Source: a virus. From it: a DNA stretch of 48,136 nt. Made by a program: the position numbers and the translations under genes. Positions 30,769 to 35,734 of this stretch are shown here, in pieces (positions within the stretch are counted from its first letter, which is position 1; every line of letters begins with the position of its first letter). A model generated the notes under the pieces. The model was not told the DNA's origin, did not search any database, and saw only the letters and a program-made list of their open reading frames with translations. Location of the stretch: positions 1-48,136 of the IMG/VR virus record IMGVR_UViG_3300033977_000008. One strand, 5' to 3'.

Positions 30769-32988
30769 ATGAAAATGTCAAAAGCGACTGCTGCAATAAT
30801 CCTCTTCCTAATCTCAGGCAGTACCCTGTTTGGCACAGTCACGAGTACGAATAACAGCGTGACGTATACCTGCTCCAATTCGACTGGGCCATTCTCTTTT
30901 AGCTTCCCAGCCTACGATGCGGGCAGTATCCAAGTCATTGAAACGGTTGGTACTACGTCCACAACGATTCCTTCCAGTCAGTACACGATTACTATAGTCA
31001 ACCATTCCTTCGCAAACGGTGGGAGCATTTCACTTTCGACTGCTTGTGCTACCGGTAATTTGCTGACAATTCAGCGCGTGACTGAGGAAACGCAACTCAG
31101 CAGTTTTACTGAATATATGCCCGCGCTATACAAAACATTTGAGTACGGCCTTGACAAGCTCACAGAGGAAATCCAAGACCTTCCTAGCAGCGTAATTCCT
31201 ACTCTTCTTTCTACTTCTCTTGCCCTCAAGCCCGCCGTGGCGGATGCGGTGCAATACGTTTCAAAAAATGGGAGCGATTCAAACGATGGCTTCTCCGAGG
31301 GGAGCGCCGTGGCCGATATTGGGACTGCCTATGGTAATCTGCCGTCGTGCACGGTTGCAAACGACCTCAACCCTTTTACAAACCCTCCGTCAACGTACAA
31401 TTCCTACACGTTCTCTCATTGTGGCAAGATTTATGTTGCTGAGGGAACGTATACGGTTTCTTCCCAAATAACTATCTCGTCTCCGTTCGTCACTGTTGAG
31501 GGCCAAGGGCAGGGTGCGGTTATAAACTGGATCGGTACAGCCGGAACCGCAATTAAGTGGACCTCCAGCCCATTCGCGCATGAATTTATAAATGCCGGTG
31601 GTCTATTCAACGTGCGGATTGATGGGTACAACGGGTCAGCCGGGACGTGGGGGCTCAACACTTATAACCTCTCCAGCTTCCATGCAGCGCGGGTTACTAT
31701 CGCCAACTTTAGCGGCTCCGGTTCAGGCTGTTGGAATAACACGATGGATTCTGGGTGGAATGAGAAATACGACGTGGAAATTACCACCGACAACTGCACA
31801 ACTCATTGGCAAGTTCAGAGGCTTTCGACTGGGAGCGGAAGTACTTACGGATACGGTAGATTCGAGGTTAAAAGCATCATTTACGCAGGCCAAACAGGCT
31901 TCGTGCTCGATGGAGGCACGCAAGGTAGCCTCTCGTTTGATAACTCCTTTTTTCATTATGTCGCCAACGAGGTTTCAAACACAGCGAACGACACCGTGAT
32001 GTTGCTTCGCAACGGAGCAAGCATGATTGATAACGTGTGCCAGATACATATGGAGGCTCCTTACGGGATCGGCACTGGAAATGAGATCAACATATCTAGT
32101 AACAGCAGCTTCGCTTGTGCCGGCGAACTCGACCAAGCCTCCCCAAGTTCAAACCTCCTATCAGGCGGCTTTAATGTCTTTAATCCGTTGCAGGCCTGGT
32201 TGCAATTCCGCGGCGACCGCCAAGTATCACTGCTTGACAGTGACTTTGAACTCAGCGGCTCAGGCACGTACCCGGTGGGCCTTCCCCCGGTGGGTTGGAC
32301 ACCAAGCAATTCACCTACATTGGCGTATGAAACGAGCACGGCTTACAACGGCAAAACTCGTTCCCTCAAGATCACAGGCTCAACGCAATACGAAGGGGTT
32401 TTCAGCCAGAACTTTCCGGTTGCCGCTGGCGATACTTATTCAATCCAATGCGCTGCCAAATCGGATGGAACCGGGACAGCCGATTGCAACGTTCAGTTCA
32501 AAAATGAGAGTGGAAGTAACTTAGCTTCAGCAAGCGCCACAACTATGTCCACTAGTTGGACAGCCTTGAGCGCCTCGGCAACAGCTCCGGCAAACGCAAC
32601 CTATGGAACCGTTGTCCTTCAGAACGATACATCGGCTGGTGCCGGTGCTACATGGTTCGACGACATTGTGGTGCGCAAGGTTGACTTTTCTGTGCTTGTA
32701 GCAAGTGGAAGACAGGCTAGCCTTTCTGGTACGGGAGCCTGTGCGACGATTACAACTCAAAAGGGTGGATCGTGGGCGGGATCATTCGTTTGTACCGGAA
32801 CAACCGGAACGAGCACGATAACGGTTACGGCGGGTCCAACCGCGCCAAACGGTTGGGTACTCACGGCCTACGACATGAATGATGGCGTGCATGGCGCGCA
32901 AACCGCCTACACGACGACTACGGCCTCCGCTAGCTTTTCCAGCGTGACGCAAAACGCCGTTTTGACCTTCACGCTAACGGCTTTCTAA
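30769..32988 (+). CDS. Tailspike/depolymerase-like protein: signal peptide, beta-helix-like core, C-terminal CBM-like jelly roll
   Basis: SD AAGGAG. N-terminus MKMSKATAAIILFLISGSTLFG. VQYVSKNGSDSNDG... resembles pectate-lyase-fold spikes. The C-terminal DSDFE...WT...Y.G..SLKI...W.DD.V pattern is CBM4/9-like. Confidence 0.5.
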   Translation: MKMSKATAAIILFLISGSTLFGTVTSTNNSVTYTCSNSTGPFSFSFPAYDAGSIQVIETVGTTSTTIPSSQYTITIVNHSFANGGSISLSTACATGNLLTIQRVTEETQLSSFTEYMPALYKTFEYGLDKLTEEIQDLPSSVIPTLLSTSLALKPAVADAVQYVSKNGSDSNDGFSEGSAVADIGTAYGNLPSCTVANDLNPFTNPPSTYNSYTFSHCGKIYVAEGTYTVSSQITISSPFVTVEGQGQGAVINWIGTAGTAIKWTSSPFAHEFINAGGLFNVRIDGYNGSAGTWGLNTYNLSSFHAARVTIANFSGSGSGCWNNTMDSGWNEKYDVEITTDNCTTHWQVQRLSTGSGSTYGYGRFEVKSIIYAGQTGFVLDGGTQGSLSFDNSFFHYVANEVSNTANDTVMLLRNGASMIDNVCQIHMEAPYGIGTGNEINISSNSSFACAGELDQASPSSNLLSGGFNVFNPLQAWLQFRGDRQVSLLDSDFELSGSGTYPVGLPPVGWTPSNSPTLAYETSTAYNGKTRSLKITGSTQYEGVFSQNFPVAAGDTYSIQCAAKSDGTGTADCNVQFKNESGSNLASASATTMSTSWTALSASATAPANATYGTVVLQNDTSAGAGATWFDDIVVRKVDFSVLVASGRQASLSGTGACATITTQKGGSWAGSFVCTGTTGTSTITVTAGPTAPNGWVLTAYDMNDGVHGAQTAYTTTTASASFSSVTQNAVLTFTLTAF

Positions 32989-33028
32989 CATGTTGACCTT
33001 CAACCTGTGTGGACTCTGAGGAAACCAA

Positions 33029-33373
33029 ATGCCTGAAAAACGCCGGTGGATTGACTGGCACATGACGCTGGGAGAAGTGATTCTCTGTATTCCAGTACTT
33101 TTGTTGCTCATTGGCGGCATCTACGGATGGCTCAAAAACAACTGGACTACAGAACAGTGGCACAAAAAGGTTGAAAGCCAGCTTCTCCAAGTGCAGCAAG
33201 AACTTTCCACTCATGGTAGTGCTCTAAAAGACATCAAGGAATCTAATGCTCAACTTTGGTTTGTTGTAAAGACCTGGGCGGAGAACCGAAAAATCGTGCC
33301 CGTTCCTATCGGAAATGGAAACGAAAAACCACTTGACAACCAGGATGCTGTGGGAGTAAAACAGCCGCAATGA
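33029..33373 (+). CDS. Single-TM protein with a periplasmic coiled coil (holin or i-spanin-like lysis candidate)
   Basis: SD GAGGAAA. TM segment VILCIPVLLLLIGGIYGWL, then helix QLLQVQQELSTHGSALKDIKE. First gene after the fibre block. Confidence 0.4.
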   Translation: MPEKRRWIDWHMTLGEVILCIPVLLLLIGGIYGWLKNNWTTEQWHKKVESQLLQVQQELSTHGSALKDIKESNAQLWFVVKTWAENRKIVPVPIGNGNEKPLDNQDAVGVKQPQ

Positions 33374-33404
33374 GTGACCATTGCGATCCTTCTCGAGGCT
33401 CTCC

Positions 33405-33430
33405 GGGGCGAGGATTCGCACCCTCGCCCC
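33405..33430 (+). terminator. Perfect 9-bp GC-rich hairpin after ORF 33029..33373
   Basis: GGGGCGAGG-attcgcac-CCTCGCCCC. The T-run after it is weak (tctcggtt), so its role as an intrinsic terminator is uncertain. Confidence 0.4.
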
Positions 33431-33449
33431 TCTCGGTTAGAGGTGAGAA

Positions 33450-34250
33450 GTGAATATCATAGATGCGTTCTGGCTCTGGCGTAAATGGGCCAAGGTCTCG
33501 CAGAAATTAAACCAGGAGGAGAAATCAGACATGACAAGCAGTTGGAAAACAAGTCTCGTAGGTGTTCTCGGCGGAATTCTTTATCTGATCGTTCAACAGA
33601 TGAGCCAAGGCGTAAAACTCCGCGATGCAGTGCTTGCGGCAGCTATGGCTTTGCTCGGGATTCTCGCCAAAGACTTCAATGTAACGGGCGGCACAACGAA
33701 ACTCAGTATCTTTTTCGCCATCATTTTGACTTTGAGTGTTACGCATGCCCAAGCACAGACGCCACCGCCAAGCCCCGTTCCCACTCCCACACAATCTACA
33801 TTGAATTTCAACGTTGGGAGTTCGATCTTCGGTGTAGGCTCACAAGCAGCCGCAGATGTGATTTTGCAAATCAATCCTGGCATCAAGAACTCGGTCCTGA
33901 AGAATCTCAGCTTTATGACAGACTCCCTGTTAAATAGCGGCGCTAACTTCCAGTATTATGGCGGGGGAGTCTTGTTTCCGATTCCCAAGAATCCGTTTGC
34001 CAACACCGCGTTGAGTCCGCTGGGGTTCTATGCCAGAGGCACAGTCGGAATAGACAGACTTGCGCCTCCAACTGGTCCCGGAAGCCAGCATATCGCCTTG
34101 ATGGTTGGGGGCGGAGTAAACTGGAAACTCGCAAATGGAGTTCAGTTCAACATCGTCGAAGTTGACCTGCTCCGCGCGCCAGGTGCGCCTTGGGGAGCAA
34201 ACGCCGTTGCCGTGTCGGGCGGAATCTCATACTTCTTCGGGCAACATTAA
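33450..34250 (+). CDS. Fusion-like protein: two-TM holin-like N-terminus, internal signal-like segment, OMP-type beta-barrel domain
   Basis: The better start may be ATG 33531 (SD AGGAGGAG). SWKTSLVGVLGGILYLIV...AAAMALLGILAKDFNVTGG is holin-like. LSIFFAIILTLSVTHAQA/Q and a Pro-rich linker follow, then alternating beta pattern ending ISYFFGQH. Confidence 0.45.
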   Translation: MNIIDAFWLWRKWAKVSQKLNQEEKSDMTSSWKTSLVGVLGGILYLIVQQMSQGVKLRDAVLAAAMALLGILAKDFNVTGGTTKLSIFFAIILTLSVTHAQAQTPPPSPVPTPTQSTLNFNVGSSIFGVGSQAAADVILQINPGIKNSVLKNLSFMTDSLLNSGANFQYYGGGVLFPIPKNPFANTALSPLGFYARGTVGIDRLAPPTGPGSQHIALMVGGGVNWKLANGVQFNIVEVDLLRAPGAPWGANAVAVSGGISYFFGQH

Positions 34251-34356
34251 GGAATTCGGATATCAGCATCTCCGCTAATATGCTGGGCGTGGCCTATCGG
34301 CATAATTGCAATTGCGTGGATAGACCACAAAGTGTTTGGGAAGAAACAGCAGTACA

Positions 34357-34740
34357 ATGAGTAATCTGCTGCTGAAGCGTACAACTTTCTTGCCGAATTG
34401 TACTCAGGGAGAGTTGTATCTCGAAGGAACATTTAATTGCTATACATTAGAGCCCGCGAAACTTGACCCCCCTATAAAACCTCGGTGTATCCCGCCTGGC
34501 ACGTACCAGTTCGAGATTGCATACTCTCCGAAGCACGCACGGAATCTACCGATATTGGAGTCTGTCCCTGGCTTCGATGAGATTGAGATTCACGTTGGGA
34601 ATTTCCCGCAGGATACGCTTGGGTGCATTCTTGTCGGAAACCAGCAAGGCACCGCCGCAGTCTACGGCTCAGGCGCTGCATTTGAAGCACTGTTTCCTCA
34701 ACTGACGCCGGGAACAATAGAAATACTTGAATCTTCGTAA
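34357..34740 (+). CDS. DUF5675-like protein with a YkuD-type H...GC signature; candidate cell-wall hydrolase/endolysin
   Basis: TQGELYLEG..CYTLEP...IPPGTYQF...LESVPGFDEIEIHVGNFPQDTLGCILVG. The H-x(n)-(S/T)-x-GC-(I/V) pattern is as in L,D-transpeptidase-fold enzymes. Confidence 0.45.
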   Translation: MSNLLLKRTTFLPNCTQGELYLEGTFNCYTLEPAKLDPPIKPRCIPPGTYQFEIAYSPKHARNLPILESVPGFDEIEIHVGNFPQDTLGCILVGNQQGTAAVYGSGAAFEALFPQLTPGTIEILESS

Positions 34741-34770
34741 GTGGTTGAAAACACCCCAAATATAAATAGC

Positions 34771-34799
34771 TTGACAAACACCCTTAATGTGCTTACTAT
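34771..34799 (+). promoter_or_regulatory. Near-consensus sigma70 promoter with a leaderless start
   Basis: TTGACA (34771..34776)-N17-TACTAT (34794..34799). ATG 34807 lies 7 nt after the -10. Confidence 0.6.
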
Positions 34800-34806
34800 G
34801 CACATT

Positions 34807-34974
34807 ATGAAATGCCAACTGAAAGGTTGCGGCAATAAATTCAAACCAGGGAAAGTTACGCAACGCTATTGTTGCGCCGCACACAGACGCAAGGCTCAAG
34901 CCAAAAGGCGTGAAGAGCGCGTGAAGCTGGCGCTCAGTCGGTATGGACCGACATGGGAAGGCGGCAAACCGTGA
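34807..34974 (+). CDS. Zinc-ribbon mini-protein (CxxC...QxYCC motif), family member 1 of 3
   Basis: MKCQLKGCGNKFKPGKVTQRYCCAAHRRKAQAKRR. The promoter places the TSS at or near this ATG. Paralogous motifs occur at 45171 and 45499. Confidence 0.55.
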   Translation: MKCQLKGCGNKFKPGKVTQRYCCAAHRRKAQAKRREERVKLALSRYGPTWEGGKP

Positions 34975-35072
34975 TCGGTGCAACACTATTTTCTATGGCT
35001 TTAATTCTGTACGTGGTTATGTGGATTGTATTCGCCGTTCTCATCATTCGTAGGATGAAGGAGCGCCAATGA
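34971..35072 (+). CDS. 33-aa single-TM peptide, absent from the ORF track
   Basis: GTGA overlap upstream and ATGA overlap downstream. Sequence VIGATLFSMALILYVVMWIVFAVLIIRRMKERQ. Confidence 0.35.
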   Translation: MIGATLFSMALILYVVMWIVFAVLIIRRMKERQ

Positions 35073-35734
35073 AAATCCAGGATGTAGTGACTGTCTACAA
35101 GCTCACCGATGAGAAAGGGGAAAGTCACAACGAAACCCAATGGGGTCCAGGGATAACCCATAGAACCAATGGGGAGGGCGAACTGTGCGGACCCGGCTGG
35201 ATTCATGTTTACCCCGATGCTCTGCTTGCCATTCTGTTAAATCCCATCCACGCTGCGTTCTCATCTCCGCGTCTTTGGGAAGCCAGCGCCTCGGGGAAAA
35301 GCAAAACGGATCATGGGCTGAAGTTTGGATATACCGAAGTTACCACCAATAAAGAACTGCCAATTCCTAAAGTCATAACGGCTCAGCGGGTGCGGTTTAG
35401 CATCCTGTGCGCGTTGGCAGTATACCACGGAGCATCATTCGAGAAGTGGGCAAACGATTGGCTAAGCGGCAAGGATCGAACTTGGGCACCCACGGGGTGG
35501 GCGGCGTGGCCGGCGGAGGCGGCGTGGGCGGCGCGGGCGGCGGAGGCGGCGCGGGCGGCGGAGGCGGTGGCGGCGGAGGCGTGGGCGGCGGAGCAGGCGG
35601 CGGTGGCGGCGGAGGCGGCGGAGACGTGGGCGGCGGAGGCGGCGGCGCACGCGGCGTGGGCGGCGCAAGATAGGCCGCTTCTCGCTTTTGATTTAATCGC
35701 TCTGGCGCATCAGGCCATCGAGGAAGAGAAATAA
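35069..35734 (+). CDS. Protein with a conserved YK..D...W..G...LC..G.H N-domain and a C-terminal Ala/Trp/Glu repeat region
   Basis: VYKLTDEKGESHNETQWGPGITH...LCGPGWIHVYPDALLAILLNP, then WAAWPAEAAWAARAAEAARAAEAVAAEAWAAEQ... Function unknown. Confidence 0.6.
   Translation: MKIQDVVTVYKLTDEKGESHNETQWGPGITHRTNGEGELCGPGWIHVYPDALLAILLNPIHAAFSSPRLWEASASGKSKTDHGLKFGYTEVTTNKELPIPKVITAQRVRFSILCALAVYHGASFEKWANDWLSGKDRTWAPTGWAAWPAEAAWAARAAEAARAAEAVAAEAWAAEQAAVAAEAAETWAAEAAAHAAWAAQDRPLLAFDLIALAHQAIEEEK
35496..35667. repeat. GC-rich low-complexity codon repeat (GCG GCG GAG GCG / GCG TGG units)
   Basis: Visible imperfect tandem repetition. The ORF track lists repeat-driven ORFs in a second plus frame (35407..35673, poly-Gly) and on the minus strand (35462..35668, Arg-rich). 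Confidence 0.8.

Follow-up and report, generated by a model that had tools for sequence, protein, structure and literature searches.

Class II holins, of which S21 of phage 21 is an example, are built of two transmembrane (TM) helices and keep both ends in the cytoplasm. Lom of phage lambda belongs to the Ail/OmpX/NspA class of barrels, and FbcH of Bradyrhizobium is a cytochrome b/c1 precursor that is split at an internal signal peptide. The gene described here recalls each of these systems in some respect. It is an open reading frame (ORF) at 33450..34250 on the + strand of an IMG/VR phage genome that is complete at 48,136 bp and bounded by direct terminal repeats (record IMGVR_UViG_3300033977_000008; "the window" below denotes this whole stretch), and it probably represents a selected fusion within a lysis cassette: a precursor in which a two-helix module of the kind found in the holin slot (the N-module), an internal Sec signal and an outer-membrane β-barrel follow one another in a single frame (Table 1). 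Residues are numbered from the ATG at 33531.

Kongari et al. (2018; PMC6139136) list 91 of 677 phages as lacking spanins such as Rz/Rz1 and gp11 of T1. Among phages that infect Gram-negative hosts, about 13% have no recognisable spanin, the opening of the outer membrane in these phages is an open question, and the same authors suggest that "an OMP could act as an o-spanin", OMP standing for outer-membrane protein (PMC6139136). The fused protein consists of parts of known kinds: a protein of the holin slot, a Sec signal and a small barrel of the outer membrane. To our knowledge, the recurrent holin::signal::barrel precursor and the tie of the barrel family to lysis cassettes are new, and full-text literature searches turned up neither a holin-barrel fusion nor a lysis cassette with a barrel.

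Table 1. Coordinates of the fused gene, its parts and the adjoining cassette genes in the window
Feature	Position	Strand	Basis
114-aa protein, N-terminal hydrophobic helix and polar charged tail, first cassette gene	33029..33373	+	ORF; weak PHROG matches
Possible 27-codon N-terminal extension, basic and amphipathic	33450..33530	+	Frame open in window and L002
N-module, residues 1-57, two-helix hairpin of the NWKTT...AKDFNVTGG family	33531..33701	+	phmmer, AlphaFold2, family context
Internal Sec-type signal peptide, residues 58-75	33702..33755	+	Alignment with N-terminal signals of stand-alone relatives
Pro/Thr-rich linker, residues 76-91, putative N-terminal tail of the mature protein	33756..33803	+	Sequence, pLDDT
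Predicted 8-stranded outer-membrane β-barrel, residues 92-239, and stop codon	33804..34250	+	AlphaFold2, Foldseek
DUF5675 protein, 127 aa, only candidate endolysin in the cassette	34357..34740	+	Pfam DUF5675, E 1.9e-31

A genuine and recurrent fusion

The fusion is genuine and under purifying selection, and not a sequencing error, because it carries no indel in an independent assembly, keeps its frame in a second phage and is found again in diverged relatives. An independent Logan contig from a peat metagenome run, which may itself be the source sample of this DNA, is identical to the window over 33400-34300 at a word depth of 39, with no indel or variant. The second phage, L002 (IMG/VR 3300035643, 47 kb), comes from another sample and keeps the fused frame at 96.5% nucleotide identity. 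Between the two ORFs 28 codons differ, 20 of them synonymously and 8 non-synonymously, and by part the synonymous and non-synonymous changes are 6/1 in the N-module, 2/3 in the signal peptide (all hydrophobic swaps), 1/2 in the linker and 11/0 in the barrel.

An exhaustive phmmer search of 1.8 billion representatives (proteins and loci bear our P and L handles) returned three classes of relative, of which the smallest, the full-length matches, comprises P0003 (97%), P0007 (49%) and P0031. At 26-49% identity, P0007 and P0031 keep the N-module::signal::barrel architecture, and P0007 is present on two contigs from different sources, one of which places the gene directly after a Tlde1_dom (L,D-transpeptidase-like) gene. 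More broadly, an N-terminal extension ahead of the signal peptide occurs in about 16 of 64 barrel representatives and falls into seven groups unrelated by BLAST. A hydrophobicity scan found two hydrophobic segments before the signal in most fused relatives and one in P0015, P0063 and P0077. Searches of Pfam and PHROGs with ten other N-terminal modules gave nothing above noise (DUF7940, at E 0.0046, fell below the cut-off). One kind of module is seen both split and fused: in L135 the order is a TM protein, DUF5675, a 61-aa gene with two TM helices, a 103-aa gene, a barrel with its own signal and a lipoprotein, and in L139 it is a VanY/M15 peptidase, a 2-TM::signal::barrel gene and a 93-aa protein with a TM helix and a coiled-coil-like part.

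The two-helix module and the holin slot

The N-module is the fused form of a family of small, separately encoded proteins. Some 45 stand-alone proteins of 54-90 aa match residues 1-57 (E 1.9e-7 to 1e-3), and the module is 32-53% identical to stand-alone proteins of 54-84 aa (P0044-P0114 range). In an alignment of 40 members, W5, G11 and K47 are invariant, and T7, G27, G43, D48 and G53 are conserved in at least 90%. AlphaFold2 (AF2) places helices at residues 5-25 and 30-48; both are short and Gly/Ala-rich, and a hydrophobicity scan flags them only at a lenient threshold. Neither Pfam nor PHROGs returned a family for the module alignment, and the family is unannotated.

A degenerate DNA pattern for AKDFNVTG identified 119 IMG/VR loci, in 118 of which the module is a separate gene of 52-74 aa, the sole fused locus being the close relative of the window. 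In all but one of these 118 loci the protein ends no more than about 20 residues past AKDFNVTGG; the window and its close relative continue for about 190 residues and represent the fused variant of the family. A recognisable endolysin lies within 2.5 kb in 100 of the loci and directly upstream in 96, and a further ten have too little upstream sequence for adjacency to be judged. The endolysins belong to GH108 (65), M15_4 (29), VanY (3), DUF5675 (2) and M15_3 (1). Directly 3' of the module, 87 of 114 loci encode a protein of 70-81 aa with an N-terminal TM helix and a charged tail, usually in an ATGA overlap, and at least 9 of the 114 have a lipoprotein gene in this position; overlapping lipobox ORFs are visible in the example loci inspected. 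The visible part of L013, which begins with the endolysin and does not cover the sequence upstream of it, runs from endolysin to N-module to overlapping i-spanin-like and lipoprotein genes. As indicated by this gene order of endolysin, N-module and i-spanin/o-spanin, the family occupies the holin slot, a position that is constant across five endolysin families. A feature search of the ESM Atlas, which serves as a lead only, placed the module nearest to clusters automatically named "putative Holin". A pinholin with a signal-anchor-release (SAR) helix was considered and dropped, the endolysins beside N-modules having no N-terminal SAR-like helix in the sequences inspected.

In-frame fusions of the N-module to other cargo that bears a signal occur in P0101, P0106, P0040 and P0107. 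In P0101 it leads into a collagen-like Gly-x-y stretch and then a lipoprotein with the lipobox L-N-A-C. P0106 (L008, 5001-5741) joins it to a C-terminal part that has F as its last residue and resembles another kind of barrel, for which a separate start is possible at an internal GTG with AAGGA upstream; the gene comes three small genes downstream of an SLT endolysin, and the phage also carries a P22-type portal gene. The other two fusions, P0040 and P0107, measure 344 aa and 634 aa.

Internal signal peptide and linker

Behind the hairpin, K57 stands just ahead of a hydrophobic core of 13 residues (L58-V70), which is followed by T-H-A-Q-A before Q76, and signal peptidase I is predicted to cut between A75 and Q76. 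AF2 models the segment as a helix at 55-69. In alignments this internal stretch pairs with the signal peptides at the N-termini of the stand-alone barrel proteins. Across the family alignment (A7) Gln occupies the +1 position in 59 of 59 members, fused or not, and the -1 residue is small (A, G, S or C) in all 59. As every member holds it, whether its signal is N-terminal or internal, the putative cleavage signature is kept under selection in the fused forms. The site (33753-33758) is mostly A|Q-T in the barrel family and resembles the "Q-rule" of pyroglutamate N-termini, which has been described as specific to Bacteroidetes in a paper that does not mention Acidobacteria (PMC5837995). Here the similar pattern is found in proteins of Acidobacteriota-linked phages and prophages.

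Where relatives begin the signal peptide with ATG AAA, the window reads ACG AAA. The stretch from helix 2 to the hydrophobic core contains no ATG, GTG or TTG, and no Shine-Dalgarno sequence is present there; internal initiation of the window barrel is thereby ruled out, and the barrel can be made only within the long precursor. The linker that follows has no secondary structure in AF2, with a predicted local distance difference test score (pLDDT) below 50 at residues 73-79 and 86-88, and its PTPTQST motif is conserved in close relatives.

The predicted outer-membrane barrel

About 60 proteins match residues ~57-239, most of them 170-200 aa long with an "MK..." signal peptide of their own, and the barrel half is 46-64% identical to its close stand-alone relatives with "MK...A|Q" signals (P0004-P0006, P0011 and others). 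The C-terminal half is predicted to be an 8-stranded barrel of the OmpX/Ail/OmpA-TM class. A model of the barrel domain, built from a 62-sequence alignment, has eight strands at a pLDDT of 78 and a predicted template modelling score of 0.69. The full-length model shows the three helices described above, disorder around the cut site and eight strands, with a pLDDT of 88-96 over the barrel block; its alignment held barrel relatives only, MAFFT overlaying relatives of the two unrelated halves. Strands of the model alternate between hydrophobic and polar faces. Against the Protein Data Bank (PDB), Foldseek returned Ail, OmpA-TM, OmpX, NspA, OprF-N, PagL and OmpW (E 2.6e-6 to 1.4e-3), at a probability of 1.0 for Ail, OmpX, NspA and OmpA and with the top matches at E 2.6e-6 to 4e-4. 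Many phage "outer membrane protein beta-barrel" proteins were matched in BFVD. A sequence-profile search of the PDB with the window protein found nothing, and among 62 relatives searched against Pfam, two touch OMP_b-brl (E 0.008) and one touches PagL.

Close relatives of the barrel end in F-G-x-x, and a final F or W closes many of the distant ones. The conserved connections are located on the face of the model away from the termini, presumably the cell-surface side, and the connections predicted on this side are short (2, 4, 7 and 8 residues). An additional C-terminal tail of 20-45 residues, rich in Arg, Lys and Ala, is present in P0009, P0013, P0021, P0037, P0111 and the barrel of L005 (3767-4345), and is reminiscent of the cationic amphipathic tails found in membrane-active lysis proteins.

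An initial annotation of this stretch, made from the letters and their translations, had recognised two hydrophobic N-terminal helices, a holin-like KDFNVTGG motif, a signal-like segment with an A-x-A site, a Pro-rich linker and a small barrel, and this anatomy holds in every part: the helices, cut-site sequence, linker and eight strands all recur in the analysis, and the motif marks a real family in the holin slot. Of the interpretations attached to it, the label "porin" does not fit a model that matches the poreless class of 8-stranded barrels (Ail, OmpX, OmpA-TM), and a one-piece envelope-spanning factor and a sequencing error fare no better, as discussed below.

Comparison with described systems

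As in the class II holins, the N-module is predicted to be a small two-helix membrane module, and its gene lies beside an endolysin, here in more than 90 viral loci; with a signal peptide fused behind it, both of its ends must be cytoplasmic. This orientation of the hairpin would follow from the downstream signal and not from charge bias. The module differs from class II holins in being unrelated in sequence to the holin families of Pfam and PHROGs, in its very short C-terminal tail and in being covalently followed, in the window, by an exported protein. Hole formation is a putative activity of the N-module.

The barrel shares with Lom, Ail, OmpX, NspA and OmpA-TM a predicted 8-stranded fold of about 150 residues, with best matches to Ail (2n2l), OmpA, OmpX (1qj9) and NspA (1p4t), and it is likewise phage-encoded at the end of a late operon. 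It has, however, no Pfam match to Ail_Lom, OMP_b-brl or OmpA_membrane, is only 7-18% identical to its structural matches, has short predicted surface-side connections, and lies among lysis genes, joined in one chain to a holin-like module.

With the spanins the gene shares its place relative to the N-module, which is that of the i-spanin/o-spanin genes, as well as a product that is predicted to be targeted to the outer membrane, is encoded in a lysis cassette and belongs to a genome without a lipoprotein spanin. That product is not a lipoprotein, however, having the cut site A-Q-A|Q and a mature part without Cys or lipobox, and it is predicted to be an integral barrel with no C-terminal TM helix, not a small periplasmic protein. 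Membrane fusion, disruption of the outer membrane or binding of the 114-aa protein may be considered as candidate functions.

The resemblance to FbcH lies in the arrangement of membrane helices, an internal signal-like helix and an exported domain in one frame, from which two products would be expected. The contexts are distinct, a respiratory complex as opposed to phage lysis genes, and here the exported part would be an outer-membrane barrel and its processing is predicted. From the stand-alone relatives of each half, finally, the window differs in that both halves share a frame and the barrel has no start codon of its own.

Lysis cassette

The stretch around the fused ORF is a lysis cassette, as indicated by the 114-aa TM gene, the DUF5675 lysin candidate and a Phage_lysozyme gene at the corresponding position of L002. 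The 114-aa protein looks like an i-spanin or a single-TM holin, with weak PHROG matches to both a holin (phrog_263, E 0.032) and an Rz-like spanin (phrog_312, E 0.16). Its gene is conserved in L002 (87% nucleotide and 90% amino-acid identity), and the protein shows distant similarity (pairwise E 1e-6) to the TM protein encoded ahead of DUF5675 in L135; a homologue search for it retrieved only itself. When the periplasmic part of the 114-aa protein was co-folded with the barrel, the score was 0.00, which speaks neither for nor against binding. Single-TM proteins with a charged, helix-like tail often adjoin the barrel gene, upstream in the window and downstream in L139 and L136.

The DUF5675 gene starts 107 nt 3' of the fused ORF, and its product carries H-x10-G-C (HVGNFPQDTLGC). 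DUF5675 has been likened to C82 (L,D-transpeptidase-type) peptidases and proposed as a lysin candidate (preprint 10.64898/2026.04.11.717860). It is encoded directly before the N-module gene in L117 and within the barrel cassette of L135. In L002 the same 114-aa gene and fused ORF are followed by genes for a 67-aa TM protein and Phage_lysozyme, which take the place of DUF5675 in the window, and DUF5675 is supported as an endolysin because it is exchanged with a lysozyme between two near-identical phages. This endolysin module swap spans 34251-34740 in the window and 10802-11561 in L002, whose 67-aa protein has a C-terminal TM helix. The first codons of the 67-aa gene survive in the window as a remnant ORF of 26 codons at 34280..34360 (M-L-G-V-A-Y-R-H-N...), the stop of which overlaps the DUF5675 start (ATGA).

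Across the family, the barrel gene is found beside DUF5675 (window, L135), Phage_lysozyme (L002), Tlde1_dom (L007), VanY/M15 (L139), SLT (L133) and a PG_binding_3 protein (L005). No plausible lipobox ORF was found in the cassette or elsewhere on the coding strand of the complete genome.

Proposed processing and role

From this architecture we infer the following course of insertion, cleavage and localisation. Both helices of the N-module would insert with the ends of the hairpin in the cytoplasm, the signal-like third helix would carry the remainder across the inner membrane, and signal peptidase I would cut between A75 and Q76, so that a 7.9-kDa three-helix protein would remain in the inner membrane and a 16.9-kDa barrel would reach the outer membrane by the usual route of the host. 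The order of helices in the AF2 model fits a polyprotein of the FbcH type, with an even number of helices, a signal-like helix with a peptidase I site and an exported domain. The fusion would yield the holin-like protein and the barrel in equal numbers from one late message.

For the barrel itself, action at the outer membrane during lysis is the leading reading, held at somewhat less than even confidence. It is favoured because the genome has no lipoprotein spanin and because the barrel family lies beside endolysins and small membrane proteins in unrelated phages. A more specific version, offered tentatively and in our judgement doubtful, is that the barrel is an "OMP-type o-spanin" that opens the outer membrane in Acidobacteriota phages devoid of lipoprotein spanins, its fusion to the holin fixing both ratio and timing; such a protein may act alone or together with a single-TM coiled-coil protein (114 aa in the window, 93 aa in L139 and 78 aa in L136).

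Several observations weigh against the proposed precursor and the roles assigned to its parts. Neither the whole fused ORF nor either half has a family match in Pfam (up to E 1) or PHROGs; the window barrel ends in Y-F-F-G-Q-H, with no terminal aromatic residue; basic residues of the N-module, at 1+2 vs 2, do not fix the hairpin topology by the positive-inside rule; and many of the 118 N-module loci are close kin whose counts overstate independent support. Small phage-encoded barrels are also common, mostly without a known role, as the BFVD matches illustrate, and the fusion might be neutral, a holin gene joined to a Lom/Ail-like lysogenic-conversion (moron) barrel that travels as a passenger at the end of the late operon. 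It would be tolerated since signal peptidase separates the products, and the barrel would serve exclusion, adhesion or host fitness. We regard this as unlikely, even with Ail, OmpX and NspA as the closest folds and with conserved connections on the putative cell-surface side of the model. Further loci favour it: the gene ahead of the barrel in L001 and L132 is large, fibre-like and signal-bearing, this being a site that also hosts lysogenic-conversion genes, and no lysis enzyme is visible in the sequence covered; L133 is a prophage in a metagenome-assembled genome (MAG) of Ca. Acidiferrales; and a lipoprotein gene, possibly an ordinary o-spanin, lies beside the barrel in L133 and L135. Yet seven unrelated N-terminal hydrophobic modules on the same barrel are many for chance adjacency, the barrel gene stays among lysis genes while the endolysin family changes six times, the short surface-side connections are unlike those of adhesins, and the complete genome has no lipoprotein spanin. 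The identity of the true holin is ambiguous as well, for the window also encodes the 114-aa TM protein. If this were the real holin, the N-module would be an antiholin-like regulator or a membrane anchor, and the fusion would serve the timing or tethering of the barrel precursor. The weak holin match of the 114-aa protein and the position of its relative directly before DUF5675 in L135 are in keeping with this arrangement, as are the further small TM genes of some N-module cassettes (L048, L050, L055), the short Gly/Ala-rich helices of the module and the short tail after AKDFNVTGG in nearly all stand-alone forms. It is nonetheless judged unlikely, as L013, in its visible part, offers no holin candidate other than the N-module, the slot of the module is constant across five endolysin families, and the feature search, again as a lead only, placed it nearest to holin-named clusters.

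The initial annotation had suggested, among other readings, a single spanin-like polypeptide spanning the envelope. In such a factor the third helix would be a permanent anchor linking the inner and outer membranes in the manner of a reversed unimolecular spanin. Unimolecular spanins are indeed single chains anchored in both membranes (PMC6139136), cleavage is predicted here from sequence, and some fused relatives (P0010, P0014) have longer linkers. Such an uncleaved factor has nevertheless become a remote prospect: the 13-residue core and the T-H-A-Q-A before Q are the same as in the cleaved-type signals of stand-alone relatives, with Gln at +1 throughout; the tail of about 16 residues, some 5 nm when fully extended, would fall well below the width of the periplasm; and a barrel tethered so near to the inner membrane could hardly reach its assembly machinery. 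A cleaved precursor fits better. The same annotation also allowed for two genes fused by a sequencing error, beside which an assembly error or a recent frameshift joining two neighbouring genes may be considered. Both halves do occur as separate genes elsewhere, ACG AAA stands where relatives have ATG AAA, and the single run found may be the source sample, so that its reads are not independent. This explanation is scarcely credible against an independent assembly without indel or variant, a second phage from another sample with the same fusion and mostly synonymous differences on both sides of the junction, and a design that is found in relatives at 26-49% identity and recurs with seven kinds of module. 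Split homologues, which the annotation had proposed to look for, are present (L135, P0004-P0006), and the halves are not simply unrelated genes that are always apart, the split forms being neighbours in lysis regions.

Should the proposed precursor and its lysis role hold, the barrel may be a means, so far undescribed, of dealing with the outer membrane at lysis. It offers a candidate family that can be cloned, tied to lysis cassettes with six families of cell-wall enzymes in Acidobacteriota, a phylum whose phages are almost unstudied. The precursor would be a rare natural polyprotein of a bacterial virus split by an internal signal peptide, and it suggests a likely topology for a widespread, unannotated holin-slot family present on more than 100 viral contigs. 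Were the barrel a mere passenger, the gene would still be a tidy example of the harmless fusion of adjacent membrane-protein genes.

Translation start, host and further observations

The frame at 33450..34250 was confirmed as open and has two candidate starts, a GTG at 33450 giving 266 aa and an ATG at 33531 giving 239 aa (P0002). The ATG has AGGAGG 8 nt upstream and coincides with the family start of the N-module, M-x-x-W-K-T. The 27 codons ahead of it (33450-33530) differ from L002 by no synonymous and two non-synonymous changes (W>C and A>G), and owing to this pattern, the Shine-Dalgarno spacing and the family alignment, the ATG is likely the main start. The longer form from the GTG is also possible, translation of the extension being uncertain. 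A tblastn search of GenBank phages with either half gave no match. The sequencing runs listed with the locus are one DNA run, of a peat metagenome, and no RNA run. Relatives of the barrel in genomes come from MAGs of Ca. Acidiferrales and Acidobacteriaceae, the family seems confined to Acidobacteriota phages and prophages, and the host is likely a diderm member of this phylum.

No terminator-like site was found on the coding strand within 32800-35100. Between the 114-aa gene and the fused ORF lies a GC-rich hairpin (33389-33450; core GGGGCGAGG / CCUCGCCCC) that is kept in L002, and its outer stem pairs with the GAGGUGAGAAG stretch preceding the GTG at 33450 in the predicted fold of 33374-33452, the energy of which is not unusual against shuffles (z -1.4).

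Other genes near the barrel recur as well. Proteins of about 250 aa with papain-like-looking Cys/His motifs are encoded beside the barrel gene of L005 (2991-3734) and beside the N-module::barrel gene of L008 (5741-6520). A conserved protein of 109-138 aa (N-terminal ...P-L-T-P-x-Q-V...A-E...) follows the barrel region in five loci (L006, 1403-1795; L134, 711-1127; L135, 2569-2952; L137, 603-968; L139, 1683-2012) and is found just before terminase-like genes in L134 and L137. Just upstream of the cassette in the window, a 739-aa fibre/spike protein (30769-32988) has a signal-peptide-like start (M-K-M-S-K-A-T-A-A-I-I-L-F-L-I-S-G...), as have the large proteins encoded ahead of the barrel in L132 and L133.

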